A DNA stretch of 42,815 nt, from positions 1 through 42,815 of IMG/VR virus record IMGVR_UViG_2630968533_000007; one strand, 5' to 3'. Origin of the DNA: a virus (lineage: Duplodnaviria > Heunggongvirae > Uroviricota > Caudoviricetes). Both the position numbers and the translations under genes were made by a program. This document shows, piece after piece, positions 3,836 through 30,492 of this stretch. A model generated the notes under the pieces. It worked only from the letters and a program-made list of their open reading frames with translations. It did not search any database and was not told where the DNA came from. How positions within the stretch are numbered: position 1 is the stretch's first letter; each line of letters opens with the position of its first letter.

Positions 3836-4009
3836 GAAGCTATCGTAGGTTAGGCCCAAGGACAGCTTTAAGCGAGGAGCGGACGCTGAATTCGAATTCA
3901 TCGTAAAAATTTTTATGGCCAAGTAGCTCTATAAGGCCTTTCATTAAAGCTATCTTTGTCGCAAAGCTTATGCAAAAAGTTACTTTATCTTTAAATCTAA
4001 TAAGATAAC

Positions 4010-4825
4010 ATGATTGACGAAACTCCAAAATCAACTTTACTTAAGCAAAAACGAGGCATGCAATTGAAAAAGATTAGGAAAATCAATAAAAAAATTATTG
4101 ATGAATTGCTATCTCTTCGCGAATCAAGAGGAGCTATAGAAGACTTCTCAATGTCTTTCCTACTAAATTTTGCAGAAAATTGTCGACTTATGCATTCACT
4201 TATTTCAACGAAAGATAAGAAAATAGATATTTATAAAACAGCATATCGACAATATTTTGTATTTCTAATCAGTTGCTGGGAAACATATTTTAGAGACGTT
4301 TTTGTTTTCGTGCATTCAGTTGATGAATCTAGAATTACAACACTACTATCTAAAATGAGAACAGAAACATCTATCAATATAAACACTGAGATAAATCTAT
4401 CAGAGTTATTGAGTAAAAGCTTTAACTTTCAAAACTTAAACGACCTTGAAGAAGCATATAATGGCATGTGGGGTGAGAGTTTTTTAAACTACATATGTAC
4501 AACTAATATATCTCCTTGCGGTCTGAGTGGCCAAATTTCCCAAGATTTATCGATAGAAAATATATTTCCAGACTGGAGAGCCCTCATAGAGGAAGCATTT
4601 TACATTAGGCACAAAGTGGTTCATGATGCAAACTTCAGACCTAAAGTCAACATTGAATTAATCAGTAAGGTAGAGGCTTTGTTTTTAATAATCCCACAAT
4701 TTGCAACGCATATCATATCAGAAAGATTCAACTTAAAAAAAATCGTCATTTCAGATGGTAAAAATAACCATACCTATATTTTCAATATCAGTGATATATT
4801 ATCTGATGATTGGGTTGTTAGTTGA
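4010..4825 (+). CDS. Hypothetical AT-rich cargo protein with a C-terminal R-x4-H (HEPN-like) motif
   Basis: 271-aa ORF, markedly AT-rich compared with neighbouring genes; motif RHKVVHD near the C-terminus; no canonical Shine-Dalgarno site. Confidence 0.35.
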   Translation: MIDETPKSTLLKQKRGMQLKKIRKINKKIIDELLSLRESRGAIEDFSMSFLLNFAENCRLMHSLISTKDKKIDIYKTAYRQYFVFLISCWETYFRDVFVFVHSVDESRITTLLSKMRTETSININTEINLSELLSKSFNFQNLNDLEEAYNGMWGESFLNYICTTNISPCGLSGQISQDLSIENIFPDWRALIEEAFYIRHKVVHDANFRPKVNIELISKVEALFLIIPQFATHIISERFNLKKIVISDGKNNHTYIFNISDILSDDWVVS

Positions 4826-4873
4826 TGATGGGATTGTAAGTATATTAACACAAAAAACAAAGAATCTAATGAA

Positions 4874-4888
4874 GTCCGCTTCTGGCAC
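4874..4888. repeat. 15-bp direct repeat gtccgcttctggcac, right copy
   Basis: Perfect match to 3821-3835. Confidence 0.5.
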
Positions 4889-5063
4889 ATAGCAGCCCTA
4901 GAGACAGTGGCGTAAAGTCATGGAGGATAGGTGGGAGGAGGTAAAAATCCTCTCATACAAAAATATGTAAAATCGATAACGGCTGGAAATCATTCAATAT
5001 TCGCACTATCAGAAGCTGGCCAGCCAGCCGCAGCACTTTCTTGCATACGACGAGCCTGCGGTT

Positions 5064-5698: not shown

Positions 5699-6037
5699 GC
5701 GGCTAAAAGGAATGTAGGGACAGGGGCGAATCAGATACCTGATATGGGTAGCTTCACGCTTTCTGTTTCAGGTACTGGATATCAAAAATTACCATCAGGT
5801 TTTATTCTTCAGTGGGGCTCAATCGGCGCTCCAGGCATTGCACAGGATGTAGTAACCCATTTCCCAATTGCATTTCCAAACAGATGTCTGCGTGTTTTGG
5901 TCTCACAAGACTATACACCAGATAGCGGGGCTGTTGGTTATATTGCCTGTGCAGGTTTTAGTCCCGACCCGGTTAAATTTATATCCAGAGCCAGTACTCC
6001 TGGCCTCGGCGCTTCATTTTTAGCGTTAGGCTGTTAA
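5699..6037 (+). CDS. Alternative tail-fibre C-terminal module, promoterless, expressed only after inversion
   Basis: Frame runs through the crossover site encoding ...NVGLGE, matching ...ENLGLGE at the crossover inside the active tail-fibre gene. Confidence 0.55.
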
Positions 6038-22466: not shown

Positions 22467-24200
22467 TTAAAGCGAGCGGATCCCGTAGGACTCAATGTGA
22501 TCAGACAGCGTGTCTTCTTTCTCGTACAGCATGGCTCTGCCAACCGCCATAATCAGCGCAACTGCACCATCGATTTTGTTTTCCGCCTGCTCTTTGACGG
22601 GCTTCACCACATCATCGTTACCCGGAATGGTTTTGCCGACCACGTTGCCGATACACCAGGTCATGATGGGATTGCCATCATGATGAAAGCGCCCCGATTC
22701 AATTGCCGCTTCCAGCTCTTTCATCGGGTCGGACATGTTGGTGTAGTTCTGAATGATGGTGATGGGATTCAGGTCTTCATCAGCAAGGTCATGTGACAGC
22801 CCGGTCGCCCCGAAGGGGTCGATGGGTGACTCGCTGACCGGGCTGATTTTGTTCGCCGCTTTGGCCTCTTCGAGGATGTAGCGATAATCCACCTCTGCAC
22901 CATCGGTAACGGTCAGGACGCCCATTTCCACCCATTTCTGAAAGCGTTCGGCTGTCCGGCGATCTTCATTTTTCTCGACGCTGTACACCGTGTCATACGG
23001 TACCCAGAAACGCGGGGCCACACTGTAGTAATGCGTTTTACCGTCAATCTCGCGGGTATAAAGTCGCGCCATGCTGTTCATATCCAGTTTACGCGCCAGG
23101 TCAAAGGCCAGAATGCACGGCTGCCCCTCGAATTGCTCAAGAGTCAGTGATTTATCCTCGCAGCTCTGCCAGCTCACCAGGTTGAAATACGCCGAACGCG
23201 CCGACACCCAGATATTGAGGTGTTTTGTTTTAAAGACGTTTGCCAGACGGGCGTTATTTTTCGCACGCTGTTGCTGACTTAACAAAAACTCACGGTAAAC
23301 CGACACCCCGATATTCGGGTTGGCTTTTTCCAGCACCTGTGGGTTGGTCCAGTCGTCACCTTCGTCAACGGTATAGATGATCCCGAACAGTTCATCGTTG
23401 GGTACCGAACCGTTGAGCATCTCGATAACTTCCCGCCGTTTGTCGTAGCACGGCCCCTCAATGTTGTACCCGGCAGTAGTAATGGCCCACATCAGTGGCT
23501 GACGTCGCGCCCCCATCCCGGTAAGCATCGTGGTGTAAAGCGCATCGGTGGCGTGCTCGTGATATTCATCCACCACCGCACAGTGGGGTGATGATCCATC
23601 ACCGGGGTTACCGATCAGCGGTTCAAACCGCGCGCCATCCTCCGGACGGTTCATGTTTGAGGCGTTAACCTCAATCCCGAACGCTTCCGTCAGCATGGGT
23701 GTGCGTTTACACATCAGTCGCGCCGGGCGAAAGACTTCCCACGCCTGTTTCTCTGTCGTGGCACCGGAATACACTTCCGCGCCAAACTCGTTATCACAGG
23801 CAAAACAATACAGGGCGACACCGGCAGAGATTGCCGATTTGCCGTTCTTACGGGGGATTTCGGTATACACCTCACGGAAGCGGCGCAGCCGGGAGCCTTT
23901 ATTGACCCAGCCAAACGCGCAGCAGATCACAAAGAGCTGCCACGGCTCCAGCGTGATGGGCATCCTCTTAAATGCCCACTCACCCTTGGTGTGCGGCAAC
24001 AGCTGAATAAATTTGGCGGCCCGTTCAGCCAGGTCCTTGTCGAAGCGGTAACGAAACGACTTACTTTTTTCCGCCATCAGGTCATCAAGATGGCGCTGGC
24101 AGGCCTGAATCACAAACTGGCAGGCCACAATCTTTCCCCGCACGACATCACGGGCATACTGATTGGCAGCATTTACGTTGGGGTAAGATTTCCGGCTCAT
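22467..24200 (-). CDS. Terminase large subunit
   Basis: 577 aa; ATPase and nuclease layout; follows the small subunit. Confidence 0.9.
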
Positions 24201-24691
24201 GATTCGATGATTTTCAGAAACGGGTTAGTGGCTTTCTTCTGCCCCGCCAGGCCTATCAGACGCTGGCGGCTGCTGGGGTCGAGTCCGAGCATTGCCCCCG
24301 TGCTGCTCATCTCGGACTCCTGTTCTTTCTTGGCGGTCAGCTCCGGGTTTTTGACCCTGCCGCCCATTGCGCCGGTGATGGTGTTGCCCTGGCTGGCAAT
24401 ATTTTTCACGGCACGTCGCCAGAACTCATAGGCCACGCACCACCGCTCAAGTACCGCCAGGTCAGTCACGCACAGCAGGCCCTGACCGCAGAGTTCTTTG
24501 GTTGTCAGTTGCCACATGATCGTGGCGAGAGGGAGATCTTCTTCTGCGAACCACTCCGGTGGCTCAACACCTTTGATGGGCGTAAAAACAGGTTCATCTT
24601 TGTTCAGGGCTCGCTTGCCGGGGTTTCCGGCCAGCGCCTTGCGCGCCGTTGGCTTGGGGCGACGCCCGGAACGCCCCGCCGTTCCAGCCAT
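24197..24691 (-). CDS. Terminase small subunit (P27-like)
   Basis: AGGAG site 8 nt before the ATG at 24691; stop overlaps the large-subunit start. Confidence 0.75.
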
Positions 24692-24817
24692 ATGCGGCAC
24701 TCCTGGTTAAATTTCATTTTTCGCGGGTATAAAAAAACGATGGGGCGGGCAGTCCGGAAGACGTCAGGTCACAGGGATTTGACCCGCCCCTCCCCCACAG
24801 ACAGTTGAGAATTATTA

Positions 24818-25168
24818 TCACTTTAACCGTTCACGGGCCGTCTTCGCCTTATGGCAGGGCCAGCACAGACTCTGCAGATTACTGTCGGCATCAGTGCCGC
24901 CATGCGCTTTAGGAACGATGTGGTCAACGGTTTTCGCCTCACGCACCACACCAGCATGCAGACATGACTGACATAAACCTTTGTCACGCTTCAGGACGCG
25001 CTCGCGGATACCGTCCCACTTCGAACCATAACCGCGCTGATGACGGGACTGGCCCGGCTTGTATTGCTTCCAGCCTTCGCCTTTGTGGCTTTCGCAATAG
25101 CCTGACGGGTCTGTGGTTGTAGAGCGGCAGCCGCGAACACGGCAGGCTTTTGGGATTCGTGGTGGCAT
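24818..25168 (-). CDS. HNH endonuclease (terminase-associated)
   Basis: Cys pairs and HIVP...H...N...CWPCH motif; AGAGGA site before the ATG at 25168. Confidence 0.85.
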   Translation of the reverse strand: MPPRIPKACRVRGCRSTTTDPSGYCESHKGEGWKQYKPGQSRHQRGYGSKWDGIRERVLKRDKGLCQSCLHAGVVREAKTVDHIVPKAHGGTDADSNLQSLCWPCHKAKTARERLK

Positions 25169-25318
25169 TGCATAATCCTCTTGGATGGTTCGCGTGCGAT
25201 ACGTGGCATCCTTCTCAGAATCGAATCGCACTCCACTCCGGTTTTGCCATAAACGATCTTTTATGCTTCGCTGGATGTAGTTGATAGTTGTTGAAACTCA
25301 ATGAACAGGAGTTCACAA

Positions 25319-25654
25319 ATGAATAGTTATGAATGGGAATGGCTTTTAAACAAAGATGACACCCTATGCTTTTTCCCCGTAGGCCATTCTGTAGAAGGTA
25401 ATTACAAAATTCACTTTGAGTTGAGCGGTAGTTGTAACCTTAGAGTCTCAGATGCTGAATGGCATGGTAAACCTGTACTGCTGTTCGAATACTTCGATGA
25501 AGATGATGACCGCCCTGCAATAATCGAAATATTAGAAACAACTACTACAACTGTGGAGGCGATGATCGGGCATCTGAATAGTATCGATAGTATTTACCAT
25601 GAACCGATTTACAAAGCGGTTTACGAGTGGGCCGTAAAGTTTTTCTATCGATGA
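25319..25654 (+). CDS. Hypothetical acidic protein, first gene of an AT-rich cargo cassette
   Basis: AGGAG site 7 nt before the ATG at 25319; opposite strand to all flanking phage genes. Confidence 0.5.
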   Translation: MNSYEWEWLLNKDDTLCFFPVGHSVEGNYKIHFELSGSCNLRVSDAEWHGKPVLLFEYFDEDDDRPAIIEILETTTTTVEAMIGHLNSIDSIYHEPIYKAVYEWAVKFFYR

Positions 25655-25697
25655 TACTTCGTTATCTTGCTGGCATTCACAATACCTTTACATACTA

Positions 25698-26324
25698 ATG
25701 ACATGCCAGCACAATACTGTCACTTACAACCGTTCGGATTACCTAGAGAAAAGTATGATTCAGGATTTACTGATCGAAGCAATTAGTCACGATAGGATGC
25801 ATAAAAAGTTAAATGAACTGAATTGCTACTTCTACAATCGCAAACATGAAACTCAAATACGTGATGAGTTAGTTGTTATTCTCAATCAAATCAGCACACT
25901 AACTGCTTTAAGTGAGCATCCAAAACTCGGTATCGGCGCTGTTGACATATCACTTTATAACCAGTCGATATTAACGTCTGAACATAATGGCAATGTTGCA
26001 ACCATCGAGATCAAACACCATTACCCAAAGGATTTACTTTATCGGCAAGTTCAAGAAGACATCATTTCCGATATTTCAAGAGTAATAGTTTCACCAACTA
26101 CACATTTTATCCATATAATCCAGCAAAGAACTATGATTAATACTCCTTCTTTTGGCCAAGTGAAATTCCTTGAACGTGATGCAAGTGATATCAGCACTTA
26201 TGTGCAATGCCTTGAAGAGCTAAGTTCCTTCCCCAGTATCTTTCATAAAAAAAGTATATGTATTGAGGTACTTGGTGAAATTATGTCGACATATACCTTT
26301 AACGTATATTCATTTGACAACTGA
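25698..26324 (+). CDS. Hypothetical protein, second gene of the AT-rich cargo cassette; possible PD-(D/E)xK-like motif
   Basis: 208-aa ORF (alternative ATG at 25755); segment GIGAVDISLY...VATIEIKHHY resembles a D...ExK arrangement. Confidence 0.45.
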   Translation: MTCQHNTVTYNRSDYLEKSMIQDLLIEAISHDRMHKKLNELNCYFYNRKHETQIRDELVVILNQISTLTALSEHPKLGIGAVDISLYNQSILTSEHNGNVATIEIKHHYPKDLLYRQVQEDIISDISRVIVSPTTHFIHIIQQRTMINTPSFGQVKFLERDASDISTYVQCLEELSSFPSIFHKKSICIEVLGEIMSTYTFNVYSFDN

Positions 26325-26345
26325 TTAATTTGACAATTTTATTGC

Positions 26346-26603
26346 TTAATGGTTAGTTCTCTCTGCATCTATTTTACGAATATCAGCTTTATCCCGATTG
26401 CAGTTAGCCAGTGCAGACAACAGACTCACATTCAGCTCCAGGCTGGCACCATAAGTCAGAGGATTTGGTATGAACGGTACAGGTGTTTCAGAAGTCAGAC
26501 TAGTCGGTAATGTTGTAGCCGGAGTGCTCACGTAAACTGTCCGCGTACTTCCGCAACCGCTCAGCAGCGGCAGCAGGCACAAGGCGTGCAGCACAACCAT
26601 CAT
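26346..26603 (-). CDS. Rz1-like outer-membrane spanin (lipoprotein)
   Basis: MMVVLHALCLLPLLSGC lipobox signal; overlaps the 3' end of Rz in another frame. Confidence 0.6.
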   Translation of the reverse strand: MMVVLHALCLLPLLSGCGSTRTVYVSTPATTLPTSLTSETPVPFIPNPLTYGASLELNVSLLSALANCNRDKADIRKIDAERTNH

Positions 26604-26880
26604 CCGCAACAGCCACTTTGATATCTTTCTGGGTTCTCTGTGACTCCAGTGCGATCTGCTGTTTTGCATGCTGGTTAACCTCTATAACTGTATTGACGAT
26701 TTGCAGTGATTGCAGGACGTTACGGGTAATGGCTGTTGCAGATTCAGCATTTTGTACAGCCTCATCAGCACGTTTCTTTTCGTGCTGATATTTGCTGTAG
26801 TAGTGGTTGGCAGACCAGATGAAAGAACCGATGACAGTAAAGAAGAATGCAGCGATAACCAGCTTATAGCTCAACTTCAT
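26500..26880 (-). CDS. Rz-like inner-membrane spanin
   Basis: N-terminal membrane helix then coiled-coil region; follows the endolysin. Confidence 0.7.
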   Translation of the reverse strand: MKLSYKLVIAAFFFTVIGSFIWSANHYYSKYQHEKKRADEAVQNAESATAITRNVLQSLQIVNTVIEVNQHAKQQIALESQRTQKDIKVAVADDGCAARLVPAAAAERLRKYADSLREHSGYNITD

Positions 26881-27340
26881 TTACCACCCCACCAGCCTCT
26901 TTAAATCGGGCAATCAGGTCACCGATTTTATGTTCATACTGACCGTAACCTGCACCAGGTAACGACGCCCAGATATTGCTGCAACGGTCGATAGCCTGAC
27001 GAATATCACCGCGATCAATCATCGGTAAAGCGCCACGCTCTTTAATCTGCTGCAATGCCACTGCGTCCTGGCTTTTGGGGGAGAAGTCTTTCAAACCAAG
27101 CTGTTTACGGTAAGCATCCCACCAGCGTGAAAGAAGCTGATAACGCCCGGCGGCTGTTGATTTGAGTTTTGGGTTTAGCGTGACAAGTTTGCGAGGGTGA
27201 TCGGAGTAATCAGTGAAGAGTTCACCACCGACAATAACGTCATAACCGTGGTTACGTGTCGGTTGTCGTCCGTTATCCGTTCCTTCTGACCAAGCCACCA
27301 TATCAAGGAAAGCTTTACGCTGGGAATTTAGTACCTGCAT
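26864..27340 (-). CDS. R: Endolysin, lambda R-type lytic transglycosylase
   Basis: ...NQRKAFLDMVAWSEGTDNGRQPTRNHGYDVIVGGELFTDYSDHPRKLV... is nearly identical to lambda R. Confidence 0.92.
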   Translation of the reverse strand: MQVLNSQRKAFLDMVAWSEGTDNGRQPTRNHGYDVIVGGELFTDYSDHPRKLVTLNPKLKSTAAGRYQLLSRWWDAYRKQLGLKDFSPKSQDAVALQQIKERGALPMIDRGDIRQAIDRCSNIWASLPGAGYGQYEHKIGDLIARFKEAGGVVNEVEL

Positions 27341-27746: not shown

Positions 27747-28799
27747 TTATTTCCCCACCAGTTCACTTACCTCTTTCACCGTCTGATTAAACCGCTCTGA
27801 CTCAAGTTCAACACCTAACGCCCGACGTCCCAGCGCCATTGCTGCTTTTATTGTGGAACCGGATCCCATAAAAAAATCAGCAACCAGATCACCTGGTCGA
27901 CTACTGGCATTGATTATTTGCCGGAGCATATCCGCAGGCTTCTCACACGGATGTTTACCCGGGTAGAACTGAACGGGTTTATGCGTCCAGACGTCGGTAT
28001 AAGGCACGGAAACTGATACGGAGAAATAGCGCCGGAGAGTTTTAAACTCATCCAGCAATTCAGAATATTTGCGATTCAGTGAATCATAAGATGCCACCAG
28101 CTGGTGGTGTGGTTGTTCCAGTTGTTGTTCCTGAAACTTCTCTGCCGCTATACGGGAAAACAGTGCCTGTAACTTCCGATAGTCAGCCTCATTCGGCAAC
28201 TGCCACTGACTGGCACCAAACCAGTGGGAAACCATATTTTTCTTACCTGTGGCTTCGGCAATTTGTTTTGCCGTTATACCCAGTTCGGCACGAGCATCCC
28301 TGAAATACGATATCAGCGGTGCCATTATGTGCTGTTTGAGTTCCCTTTCTTTTGCCGCATAGCCGTCACTTTTGCCGCGATATGGCCCCTGGTAATGTTC
28401 AGCAAACAGAACGCGCTCTGTGGCAGGAAAATATGCGCGCAGACTTTCTTTATTACACCCATTCCAACGTCCGGACGGCTTCGCCCAGATGATATTGTTA
28501 AGCACGTTGAAACGTTCACGCATCATGATCTCAATATCAGATGCCAGGCGATGCCCACAGAACAGGTAAAGGCTTCCGGCAGGTTTCAACACCCGCCAGA
28601 ACTGGGCCAGACAGTGGTCCAGCCACTTAAGGTAATCTTCGTCCCCTTTCCACTGATTGTCCCAACCGTTGGGTTTCACCTTGAAGTAAGGCGGATCGGT
28701 AACAATCAGGTCAATGGAATCATCAGGCAGGGACTGAATAAAATGCAGGCAATCAGCGTTGATTAAATCAACACTGTTTATTTTTACAGTATTTTTCAT
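27747..28799 (-). CDS. DNA methyltransferase (N6-adenine/N4-cytosine, beta class), orphan
   Basis: DPPY motif near the N-terminus and FMGSGST AdoMet motif near the C-terminus; no adjacent restriction gene. Confidence 0.8.
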   Translation of the reverse strand: MKNTVKINSVDLINADCLHFIQSLPDDSIDLIVTDPPYFKVKPNGWDNQWKGDEDYLKWLDHCLAQFWRVLKPAGSLYLFCGHRLASDIEIMMRERFNVLNNIIWAKPSGRWNGCNKESLRAYFPATERVLFAEHYQGPYRGKSDGYAAKERELKQHIMAPLISYFRDARAELGITAKQIAEATGKKNMVSHWFGASQWQLPNEADYRKLQALFSRIAAEKFQEQQLEQPHHQLVASYDSLNRKYSELLDEFKTLRRYFSVSVSVPYTDVWTHKPVQFYPGKHPCEKPADMLRQIINASSRPGDLVADFFMGSGSTIKAAMALGRRALGVELESERFNQTVKEVSELVGK

Positions 28800-29472: not shown

Positions 29473-30492
29473 TTGGATAAGTTTGATGAGATTCATGTAG
29501 ACATTGAATCTGAGCAGCAAGCCTTCGATTTGCTTGAAAGCTATCTTGATGGTTATGGTTTACCTGACAGTTTAAGTTTCAACGGATGGCCAAACCTTAC
29601 CATCAGATTAACCGGTGAAAAATTCAACAGATCGCTAACACCTTCAGTTATGAAGGGATTTGTTGAAATGCAAGCTCAAATCAACAAATCATATGCCCTT
29701 GCCAAGTACGGTGTCCCTGACGTCCGCAAACTGACCAAAGAAGAACTTGATGCCCTAGAAATAGAAGTTACGGTAGAACAGGGTTCTTCAATAGTAGAAA
29801 TCAACATTGATGGCTTTTTAACCAAACTCACACAGGAACTTGTTGGTAAAATGAACGCAACTGAGATCATGTTTACTGTTCTCGGCGCAGCAGTCATCTG
29901 GGGCGGAGTAACAGTATTTAAACGGTTCTTGGACAACCGTAAAGATATTCGCCTTGCAGAAATTGCTAAGGATGGAGAGAAAGAACATCTCCGGACTATG
30001 CAGATCATGAGCGAGCAAGAAACTAAACGCCTGCGGGTTATTTCAGAAATGATTGCGGAAAAACCACTTCTCGATAACATGGACCGTATGTCGTATGACG
30101 CTAAAACCCAAATGGTCAAATCCTTTGTGCGTTCAGATAACGCTCAAATTGATGGCGTTACTATTGATTCTGAAATGGCGAAAGAGTTGGTTACGAATGC
30201 TCGTAGACGTTCATCAGAAATGAGGATTGATGGTATTTACCGAATTGAAGAAGTCAATAATACTGACCCAGAGAGTTTCAAAGTTAAGGTCCGACGCGTA
30301 GATACCGACCAACGTCTAACCTGCGTAGTTCAGGATGTTTTCCTTGATGAATCCGGAAACAAAGAAGCATTGCAGCGAGCTGAGTGGGAAAGAAAGCCTG
30401 TACATTTGAGCATTAACGCAAAACACGTCGATGGTGACATTAAGTCAGCAGTAATTCTCTATGTTCGAGATGTGGAACAAAAGCCCGAGTAA
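29473..30492 (+). CDS. Hypothetical single-pass membrane protein (cargo between Q and the late operon)
   Basis: 339-aa ORF with TTG start 7 nt after GAGGA; one hydrophobic helix (IMFTVLGAAVIWGGVTVF); convergent with Q. Confidence 0.5.
   Translation: MDKFDEIHVDIESEQQAFDLLESYLDGYGLPDSLSFNGWPNLTIRLTGEKFNRSLTPSVMKGFVEMQAQINKSYALAKYGVPDVRKLTKEELDALEIEVTVEQGSSIVEINIDGFLTKLTQELVGKMNATEIMFTVLGAAVIWGGVTVFKRFLDNRKDIRLAEIAKDGEKEHLRTMQIMSEQETKRLRVISEMIAEKPLLDNMDRMSYDAKTQMVKSFVRSDNAQIDGVTIDSEMAKELVTNARRRSSEMRIDGIYRIEEVNNTDPESFKVKVRRVDTDQRLTCVVQDVFLDESGNKEALQRAEWERKPVHLSINAKHVDGDIKSAVILYVRDVEQKPE

Follow-up and report, generated by a model that had tools for sequence, protein, structure and literature searches.

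In phage lambda, the slot between the lysis genes and the packaging genes is occupied by bor, which is oriented against the late operon and encodes an outer-membrane lipoprotein responsible for serum resistance. The term moron, applied to genes of this kind, goes back to Juhala and Hendrix. Prophages also carry solitary restriction enzymes, of which McrA of e14 is an example. Fixed sites in temperate phages that exchange unrelated accessory and defence genes have been described as the defence hotspots of P2 and P4 prophages and satellites (Rousset et al. 2022, PMC9122126).

The locus described here lies in the window (the whole stretch of 42,815 nucleotides of IMG/VR record IMGVR_UViG_2630968533_000007), which is an E. 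coli prophage of the SfV/e14-like type; its head is of the HK97 type, its contractile tail resembles that of Mu, and its early genes are lambdoid. The neighbour of the prophage integration is tRNA-Thr/proA, and the sequence around the locus is 100% identical to NZ_AP022098. The HNH/terminase packaging genes on one side and the Rz1/Rz/endolysin/holin genes on the other enclose two plus-strand genes, called A and B below. The features of the region are as follows:

24197-24700, minus strand, terS of the P27 family, on the left side, followed by terL (minus strand)
24818-25168, minus strand, HNH gene (PF01844), left of the insert
25169-26376, variable cargo segment of ~1.2 kb, from the HNH start codon to the 3' end of Rz1/LysC, delimited by blastn against an empty-site phage
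25307-25311, plus strand, Shine-Dalgarno sequence AGGAG of gene A, 7 nt before the ATG at 25319, read from the sequence
25319-25654, plus strand, gene A, 111 residues, phrog_14397 (function unknown), pI 4.6
25687-25715, plus strand, promoter-like TTTACA-17-CACAAT in the spacer between A and B, ~40 nt before the B start at 25755, from a consensus scan
25755-26324, plus strand, gene B, 189 residues, phrog_12494; the mechanical ORF from 25698 has 208 residues
right of the insert, minus strand, Rz1/LysC, Rz, endolysin and holin genes

This arrangement agrees with an earlier sequence-only reading of the window, which had reported two plus-strand ORFs at 25319-25654 and 25698-26324, a lysis-to-packaging junction around them and an AT-rich composition. 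The GC content is 0.40 in A, 0.35 in B and 0.37 in the insert as a whole, against 0.51 in the window and 0.55–0.58 in the flanking late genes. The stop codon of B is 21 bp away from that of Rz1. The same reading had called the surrounding block entirely minus-strand apart from these two genes, which is not the case: a second AT-rich (~42% GC) ORF of 339 residues runs on the plus strand at 29473-30492, between the methyltransferase/small ORF and the Q antiterminator gene, and has no match in Pfam or PADLOC. The GC minimum of the window (0.30–0.35) is elsewhere, at 4001-5000, outside the region compared with locus L001. An Rfam scan of 24700-26900 gave no match.

The region is a variable cargo slot that holds two unrelated morons stacked next to each other, and not a two-gene module. 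In the empty-site phage vB_EcoM-720R4, both flanks are common with the window and 72 bp take the place of 25169-26376; blastn homology to the empty-site sequence (L020) ends at 25168 and starts again at 26377. The stretch marked earlier at 25232-26345 lies within this inserted segment, which extends beyond it on both sides. The last ~31 nt of Rz1/LysC (26346-26376, minus strand) are part of the variable segment, so the C-terminus of the o-spanin differs between cargo-bearing and empty-site phages. In SfV and SfIV, which share both flanks with the window, the HNH gene directly adjoins Rz1 and the insert is absent. Presence or absence between otherwise syntenic genomes (720R4, SfV and SfIV are empty) and a GC content of 0.37 versus 0.55 are the marks of a phage moron.

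Elsewhere, the same packaging module is accompanied at this junction by a 168-residue ORF, an S1 peptidase, a GrlR-family protein, a DUF6236 protein, a DUF2441 protein, or nothing, and the five contents seen in five sampled prophages with this module are all different. The absence of the insert from 720R4, SfV and SfIV and the other contents in other prophages bear out the earlier suggestion that this junction carries cargo. The HNH and P27-terS module is present in 1108–1328 of 5426 complete E. coli genomes and the A-B insert in 72–79 of them; B occurs in ~6–7% of the prophages that have the module. In SfV/e14-like and other lambdoid prophages, the junction of lysis and terminase genes (present in about one-fifth to one-quarter of complete E. 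coli genomes) is a cargo hotspot that could be mined further.

Similar to bor and other lambdoid morons, A and B occupy this slot opposite to the late operon, have an atypical composition and are present or absent between syntenic phages, but unlike Bor, to which they are unrelated, both look cytoplasmic. The slot resembles the P2/P4 hotspots in being a fixed position of a temperate-phage genome at which unrelated accessory genes, among them putative defence genes, are exchanged. At the neighbouring Q-holin site, where the window has the plus-strand ORF 29473-30492, related prophages have genes for a TIR-domain protein, a KAP NTPase, a Kiwa (KwaB-like) protein or a nucleoid-associated protein (L127, L125, L031 and L123). 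Unlike the P2/P4 hotspots, the HNH/Rz1 site belongs to another phage family, is located at another position and has a presumptive defence content.

Neither A nor B is found in 50,697 deposited phage genomes (megablast and tblastn). As B is present on 54 prophage-derived IMG/VR contigs and 79 complete E. coli genomes contain it, integrated prophages are the only setting in which this cargo has been seen. The cassette can decay: in E. coli strain 602687 (L032 3203-4365), an IS3 element has taken the place of the greater part of B, in a prophage that is cut short next to icd. A DUF2441 protein is encoded at the HNH/lysis junction of another E. coli prophage (L126 4043-4651), and a second one (L025 10400-11104) adjoins HsdS in a defence island that also contains a divergent homologue of B. 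These two positions hint at DUF2441 as a further cargo related to defence.

Gene A is preceded by the strong AGGAG site that the earlier reading had pointed out, and the GGAG core of this site is kept in several homologous loci. The protein has neither a signal peptide nor a transmembrane segment. Only 13 homologous clusters were found. A pN of 0.16–0.18 against a saturated pS of ~0.9 indicates that A is under purifying selection and is a real gene rather than a chance ORF. Its AlphaFold model is of low confidence (pLDDT of 57), and the remote-homology and structure comparison suggested earlier gave no fold assignment. Searches of Pfam, NCBIfam, PADLOC and the PDB with A produced no assignment, and its family has no consistent match in Pfam. 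Two candidate relationships were discarded. The PDB match to CPR-C4 is marginal (E 0.17) and A has no conserved cysteine, while a comparison with the β-flower proteins found upstream of Bacteroidota B homologues gave an hhalign P of 0.24.

Gene B most likely starts at 25755 and is 189 residues long, judging by the PGAP annotation and all of the homologues, which begin with MIQ..LL (MIQDLL in the window); phrog_12494 covers only residues 20–208 of the longer ORF. The 208-residue version that had been proposed, 25698-26324, does exist as an ORF, but its start is probably wrong. The dN/dS of B is ~0.10–0.13, and full-length homologues of A and B occur in six or more genera. Both genes are therefore more than chance ORFs. 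The earlier description of A and B as unrecognised is right as far as Pfam, NCBIfam and PADLOC are concerned, while PHROGs places them in two families of unknown function, phrog_14397 and phrog_12494.

The sequence-only reading had taken A and B for a two-gene cassette and had proposed to look for the pair at the same junction in other prophages. The pair is not conserved, which is one of the outcomes that this reading had named as speaking against its proposal. B homologues with 50–72% identity are located at the lysis/terminase junction of other prophages, also on the opposite strand, but their neighbours differ. In Enterobacter, B is found in several different backbones with an unrelated ORF of 72–75 residues ahead of it; in Providencia and Yersinia it has no A beside it; and in Pectobacterium it is part of a decayed prophage. 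A tblastn search for an uncalled A near B in the Enterobacter, Providencia, Yersinia and Pectobacterium loci was negative. Within E. coli, strain GF60 has B next to a divergent ORF that is unrelated to A and takes its position. Conversely, in Escherichia sp. ESNIH1 and several metagenomic prophages, A homologues with 68–76% identity have no B beside them and diverge from a Terminase_2 terS; A without B is found at the lysis/terS junction in loci L012-L014 and L016-L019, and one more A homologue is located in a Pectobacterium chromosomal remnant. Locus H59 was considered as an A-only locus of E. coli and rejected, as B is there disrupted by IS3.

These loci bear on the idea that A and B form a single module, either toxin-antitoxin-like or sensor-effector, in which the acidic A inhibits or regulates B. 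In E. coli the two genes adjoin each other in the same orientation, and 72 of 80 matching records have both; the small size and the acidity of A (pI 4.6) are features of many nuclease inhibitors and antitoxins; and some small ORF directly precedes many divergent B homologues. However, at least seven loci have A without B and at least ten, including E. coli GF60, have B without A; the small upstream ORFs belong to at least five unrelated classes, none of which resembles A; A and B are 100 bp apart, with a promoter-like site in between; and in other lineages each gene has its own terS stub (see below). The conserved co-occurrence and order across lineages expected of a toxin-antitoxin pair or a defence operon is not seen, and we consider a joint module quite improbable.

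The way in which A and B reached the slot can be read from their upstream regions. The block upstream of A homologues and of B homologues outside E. coli is the reverse complement of the ribosome-binding site and start of terS. Such remnants are found in the window and in other loci:

25215-25250, minus strand, fossil 5' end of terS (MAKPEWSAIRF*, 11 codons), divergent from and directly upstream of A, found by motif search and translation
L002-L007, ~5910-5960, terS stubs
L008, ~5424 and ~5909, terS stubs
L009, 5567-5962, terS stub

The fossil in the window resembles MAKPDWG(V/A)LQ, the N-terminus of the real terS that abuts the A homologues in L012-L014 and L016-L019. It is of the Terminase_2 type, whereas the real terS of the window belongs to the unrelated P27 family. 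In the Enterobacter loci, a 17-codon terS stub lies directly upstream of B, and the real terS starts elsewhere and has a different sequence. The Providencia locus has two terS stubs and the Pectobacterium locus a truncated terS of 131 residues. Since stubs are found both beside A and beside B, the unit of transfer appears to consist of a terS 5' stub, a short spacer and a moron, and the E. coli cassette is, by this sequence evidence, two such units stacked on each other. The donors would be lambdoid phages in which the gene abuts a small-terminase gene beginning with MAKPDW. Such a scar is a practical marker for tracing the movement of morons between unrelated phage backbones.

Expression signals are sparse. 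The promoter-like site in the A-B spacer comes from a scan in which the number of such sites was not above that expected from shuffled sequence. The consensus scan gave no promoter upstream of A, and no terminator was found after B. In the B loci outside E. coli, a perfect TATAAT overlies the start codon of the stub, ~30 nt before B.

B is predicted to be a PD-(D/E)xK nuclease (Pfam clan CL0236) of the EcoRV/SwaI structural branch with an intact active site. Its AlphaFold model, calculated with 21 homologues, has a pLDDT of 85 and a pTM of 0.85 and shows the α-β-β-β-α-β core of this fold (helix 29–46, strands 50–53, 65–68 and 80–89, helix 97–108 and strand 117–127). The putative catalytic residues are found at the expected positions of this core, with E32 in the first helix of the core, D64 where strand β2 starts, and E85-x-K87 within strand β3:

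25842-25850, plus strand, codons of K30-H31-E32; K30 and E32 are invariant and lie on helix 29–46, before the β-sheet
25944-25946, plus strand, codon of D64, an invariant Asp at the start of strand β2 (the 'PD' position)
26007-26015, plus strand, codons of E85-I86-K87, the invariant (D/E)xK on strand β3

In an alignment of 38 of the 48 B relatives (see below) that extends down to ~20% identity, K30, E32, D64, E85 and K87 are the only invariant columns, and E54 and P56 are nearly invariant. The D...IEIK pattern singled out in the sequence-only reading is real and corresponds to D64 ... I84-E85-I86-K87 in the 189-residue numbering, and the nuclease it was taken to signal is now supported by the modelled core fold and the invariance of E32, D64, E85 and K87.

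The best structural matches of the B model are the type IIP enzymes R.SwaI, R.BglI, R.EcoRV and R.NlaIV. A weak hhalign alignment with EcoRV (P 0.007 and 0.018, probability <6%; the EcoRV sequence was checked against 1EO3) places D64/E85/K87 on D74/D90/K92 of EcoRV and E54-x-P-K on its E65-P-K, with GAVDISLY...ATIEIKHHY of B in register with YPDFTLY...IAIDIKTTY of EcoRV. Foldseek searches of the PDB and BFVD with the model gave no significant match, searching the PDB with profiles made from the B alignments gave no match and hence no family-level sequence similarity, and no Pfam, NCBIfam or PADLOC model reached threshold. Distant members of the family match HSDR_N, PDDEXK_4, PDDEXK_9, DpnII-MboI and Tox-REase-7 weakly, and divergent relatives have sporadic sub-threshold PADLOC matches to SduA and REase_II. 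Like the enzymes of the EcoRV branch, B is a small single-domain protein with the β2 Asp and the β3 (D/E)xK. It differs from them in being shorter (189 versus 226–299 residues), in having an invariant K30 and an E54-x-P56 element of its own, and in lacking a cognate methyltransferase.

The last difference is central to one alternative, in which B is a sequence-specific type II restriction endonuclease whose methyltransferase acts in trans and is either the N6/N4 methyltransferase of the prophage (27747-28799) or the host Dam/Dcm. The predicted fold is closest to type IIP enzymes (SwaI, BglI, EcoRV), the size would fit a minimal homodimeric endonuclease, and a type II-like methyltransferase (PDLC03265, E 3e-151) is encoded 1.4 kb away. 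Close B homologues are all found in Enterobacterales, which generally have Dam. Linkage of B to the prophage methyltransferase was nevertheless rejected, as the same methyltransferase is present in the empty-site phage 720R4, is not beside B in GF60 and, in the loci of Enterobacter and Providencia, does not occur within 6 kb of it. Among 135 neighbours in 25 loci, no methyltransferase consistently accompanies the divergent homologues either. A cognate methyltransferase co-inherited with B, as in a type II system, is therefore not seen, and restriction with a methyltransferase in trans is unlikely.

The most likely function of B is instead that of a single-gene anti-phage nuclease. In the lysogen, a promoter of its own would drive B, and the enzyme would cut the DNA of superinfecting phages in a Mg2+-dependent reaction, using an active site made of E32, D64, E85 and K87 plus the invariant K30. 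It would be a restriction-like defence with no conserved partner and no cognate methyltransferase, of benefit to both prophage and host. The host chromosome might be spared through recognition of modified or phage-specific DNA, through host Dam/Dcm methylation, or through activation only on infection. An unprotected restriction-like nuclease should be toxic, and this counts against a role in defence. The defence reading of A and B is also weakened by the lack of PADLOC, Pfam and NCBIfam matches, by the weakness of the EcoRV alignment and by the absence of both genes from all 50,697 phage genomes. With these points taken into account, we hold with moderate confidence that the slot carries two morons that moved independently, of which B is an EcoRV/SwaI-branch nuclease that defends the lysogen and A is separate. 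A would be a small acidic cytoplasmic moron product; one may guess, with low confidence, that it binds proteins in conflicts between phages or between phage and host and acts independently of B.

Solitary nucleases provide a parallel to this function. Like Shedu SduA and McrA of e14, members of the B family stand alone, have no methyltransferase and are found on mobile elements or in defence islands, and one divergent member has a weak SduA match (1e-5). Unlike SduA, B has no N-terminal sensor domain, and unlike McrA, which is an HNH enzyme, it is of the PD-(D/E)xK type. B is solitary, as type IV restriction enzymes are, but no modification-reading domain, nor any other extra domain, was detected in its 189-residue single-domain model. 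PADLOC-DB 2.0 has no match for A, B or the close relatives of B. If B does restrict phages, it would be a very small (189 residues) single-gene nuclease defence with neither a methyltransferase nor a sensor domain, and how it tells self from non-self would become a clear, testable question. If it does not, A and B are an ordinary pair of uncharacterised prophage accessory genes.

The B family is small. An exhaustive HMM search of 1.84 billion representatives gave 48 relatives, nearly all of 180–230 residues. The close clade is confined to Enterobacterales prophages, and the divergent clade is found on chromosomes or plasmids of Bacteroidota and Acinetobacter. Four divergent loci were looked up. 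In one of them a type I restriction-modification operon that also contains SMODS/SLATT and AbiE surrounds the B homologue; in a second its neighbours are HsdM/HsdS and GmrSD_N, and in a third DarT and a Macro-domain protein. In the census of 135 neighbours at 25 B-family loci, HsdM/HsdS, WYL and SLOG proteins recur, but many other neighbours are housekeeping genes, so the apparent association of divergent B homologues with defence islands is partial. No mention of either protein turned up in the literature under its RefSeq accession or PHROG id, or in the parts of the DefensePredictor supplementary tables that were covered. The B family is unnamed, uncharacterised and new, while the moron slot and the PD-(D/E)xK nuclease are of known kinds. 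It is possible, and we suggest it tentatively, that the family as a whole is an unrecognised single-gene anti-phage system, minimal and methyltransferase-less, which spares the host without a dedicated methylase and resides in cargo slots of Enterobacterales and in defence islands of Bacteroidota and Acinetobacter, with A as an independent conflict factor in the same slot.

This distribution also bears on two other roles for a nuclease at this site. B could be a selfish free-standing endonuclease of the homing type that cuts the terS/lysis junction of phages lacking it. Such an element would agree with the variable occupancy of one fixed intergenic position flanked by conserved phage genes, with the co-transfer of flanking terS fragments and with the stand-alone nature of B without a partner. 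However, the same terS-stub pattern accompanies A, which is not a nuclease gene, so the stubs are not specific to B; the antisense orientation of B relative to the late operon would hamper its expression during co-infection; the divergent homologues are found in chromosomal defence islands and on a plasmid rather than in phages; and no isolated phage genome contains B. Homing is thus very unlikely. Equally slim is the chance that B, as a nuclease, serves the lytic cycle of the phage, for example by breaking down host DNA or by acting on intermediates of recombination or replication. B is opposite to the late operon, has a foreign base composition, is patchily distributed (~6–7% of the prophages with the module) and has homologues in non-phage islands.

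Divergent members of the nuclease family differ in what precedes them. The ORFs ahead of them belong to at least five unrelated classes, namely β-flower (PF21786), DUF6150, other hairpin-repeat, YAcAr/SLOG and TM-tailed proteins, and at several divergent loci no ORF precedes the B homologue. An all-against-all blastp comparison of the neighbours gave no upstream partner shared across the B family. In several Bacteroidota and metagenomic loci, a small β-hairpin-repeat protein is encoded directly upstream of the B homologue and contains Bflower_3 (PF21786, E 3e-37), DUF6150 or unassigned repeats:

L094, 9633-9974, β-hairpin-repeat gene
L115, 9690-9971, β-hairpin-repeat gene
L095, 9617-9967, β-hairpin-repeat gene
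L097, 9619-9969, β-hairpin-repeat gene
L099, 9502-9864, β-hairpin-repeat gene
L025, 5637-5939, β-hairpin-repeat gene

This protein, which is unrelated to A, is a possible lineage-specific partner of divergent B. In Acinetobacter and metagenomes, B relatives carry a fused C-terminal DUF6508 domain, and one of them (L024 1-857) is located on a small Rep3-type plasmid contig.
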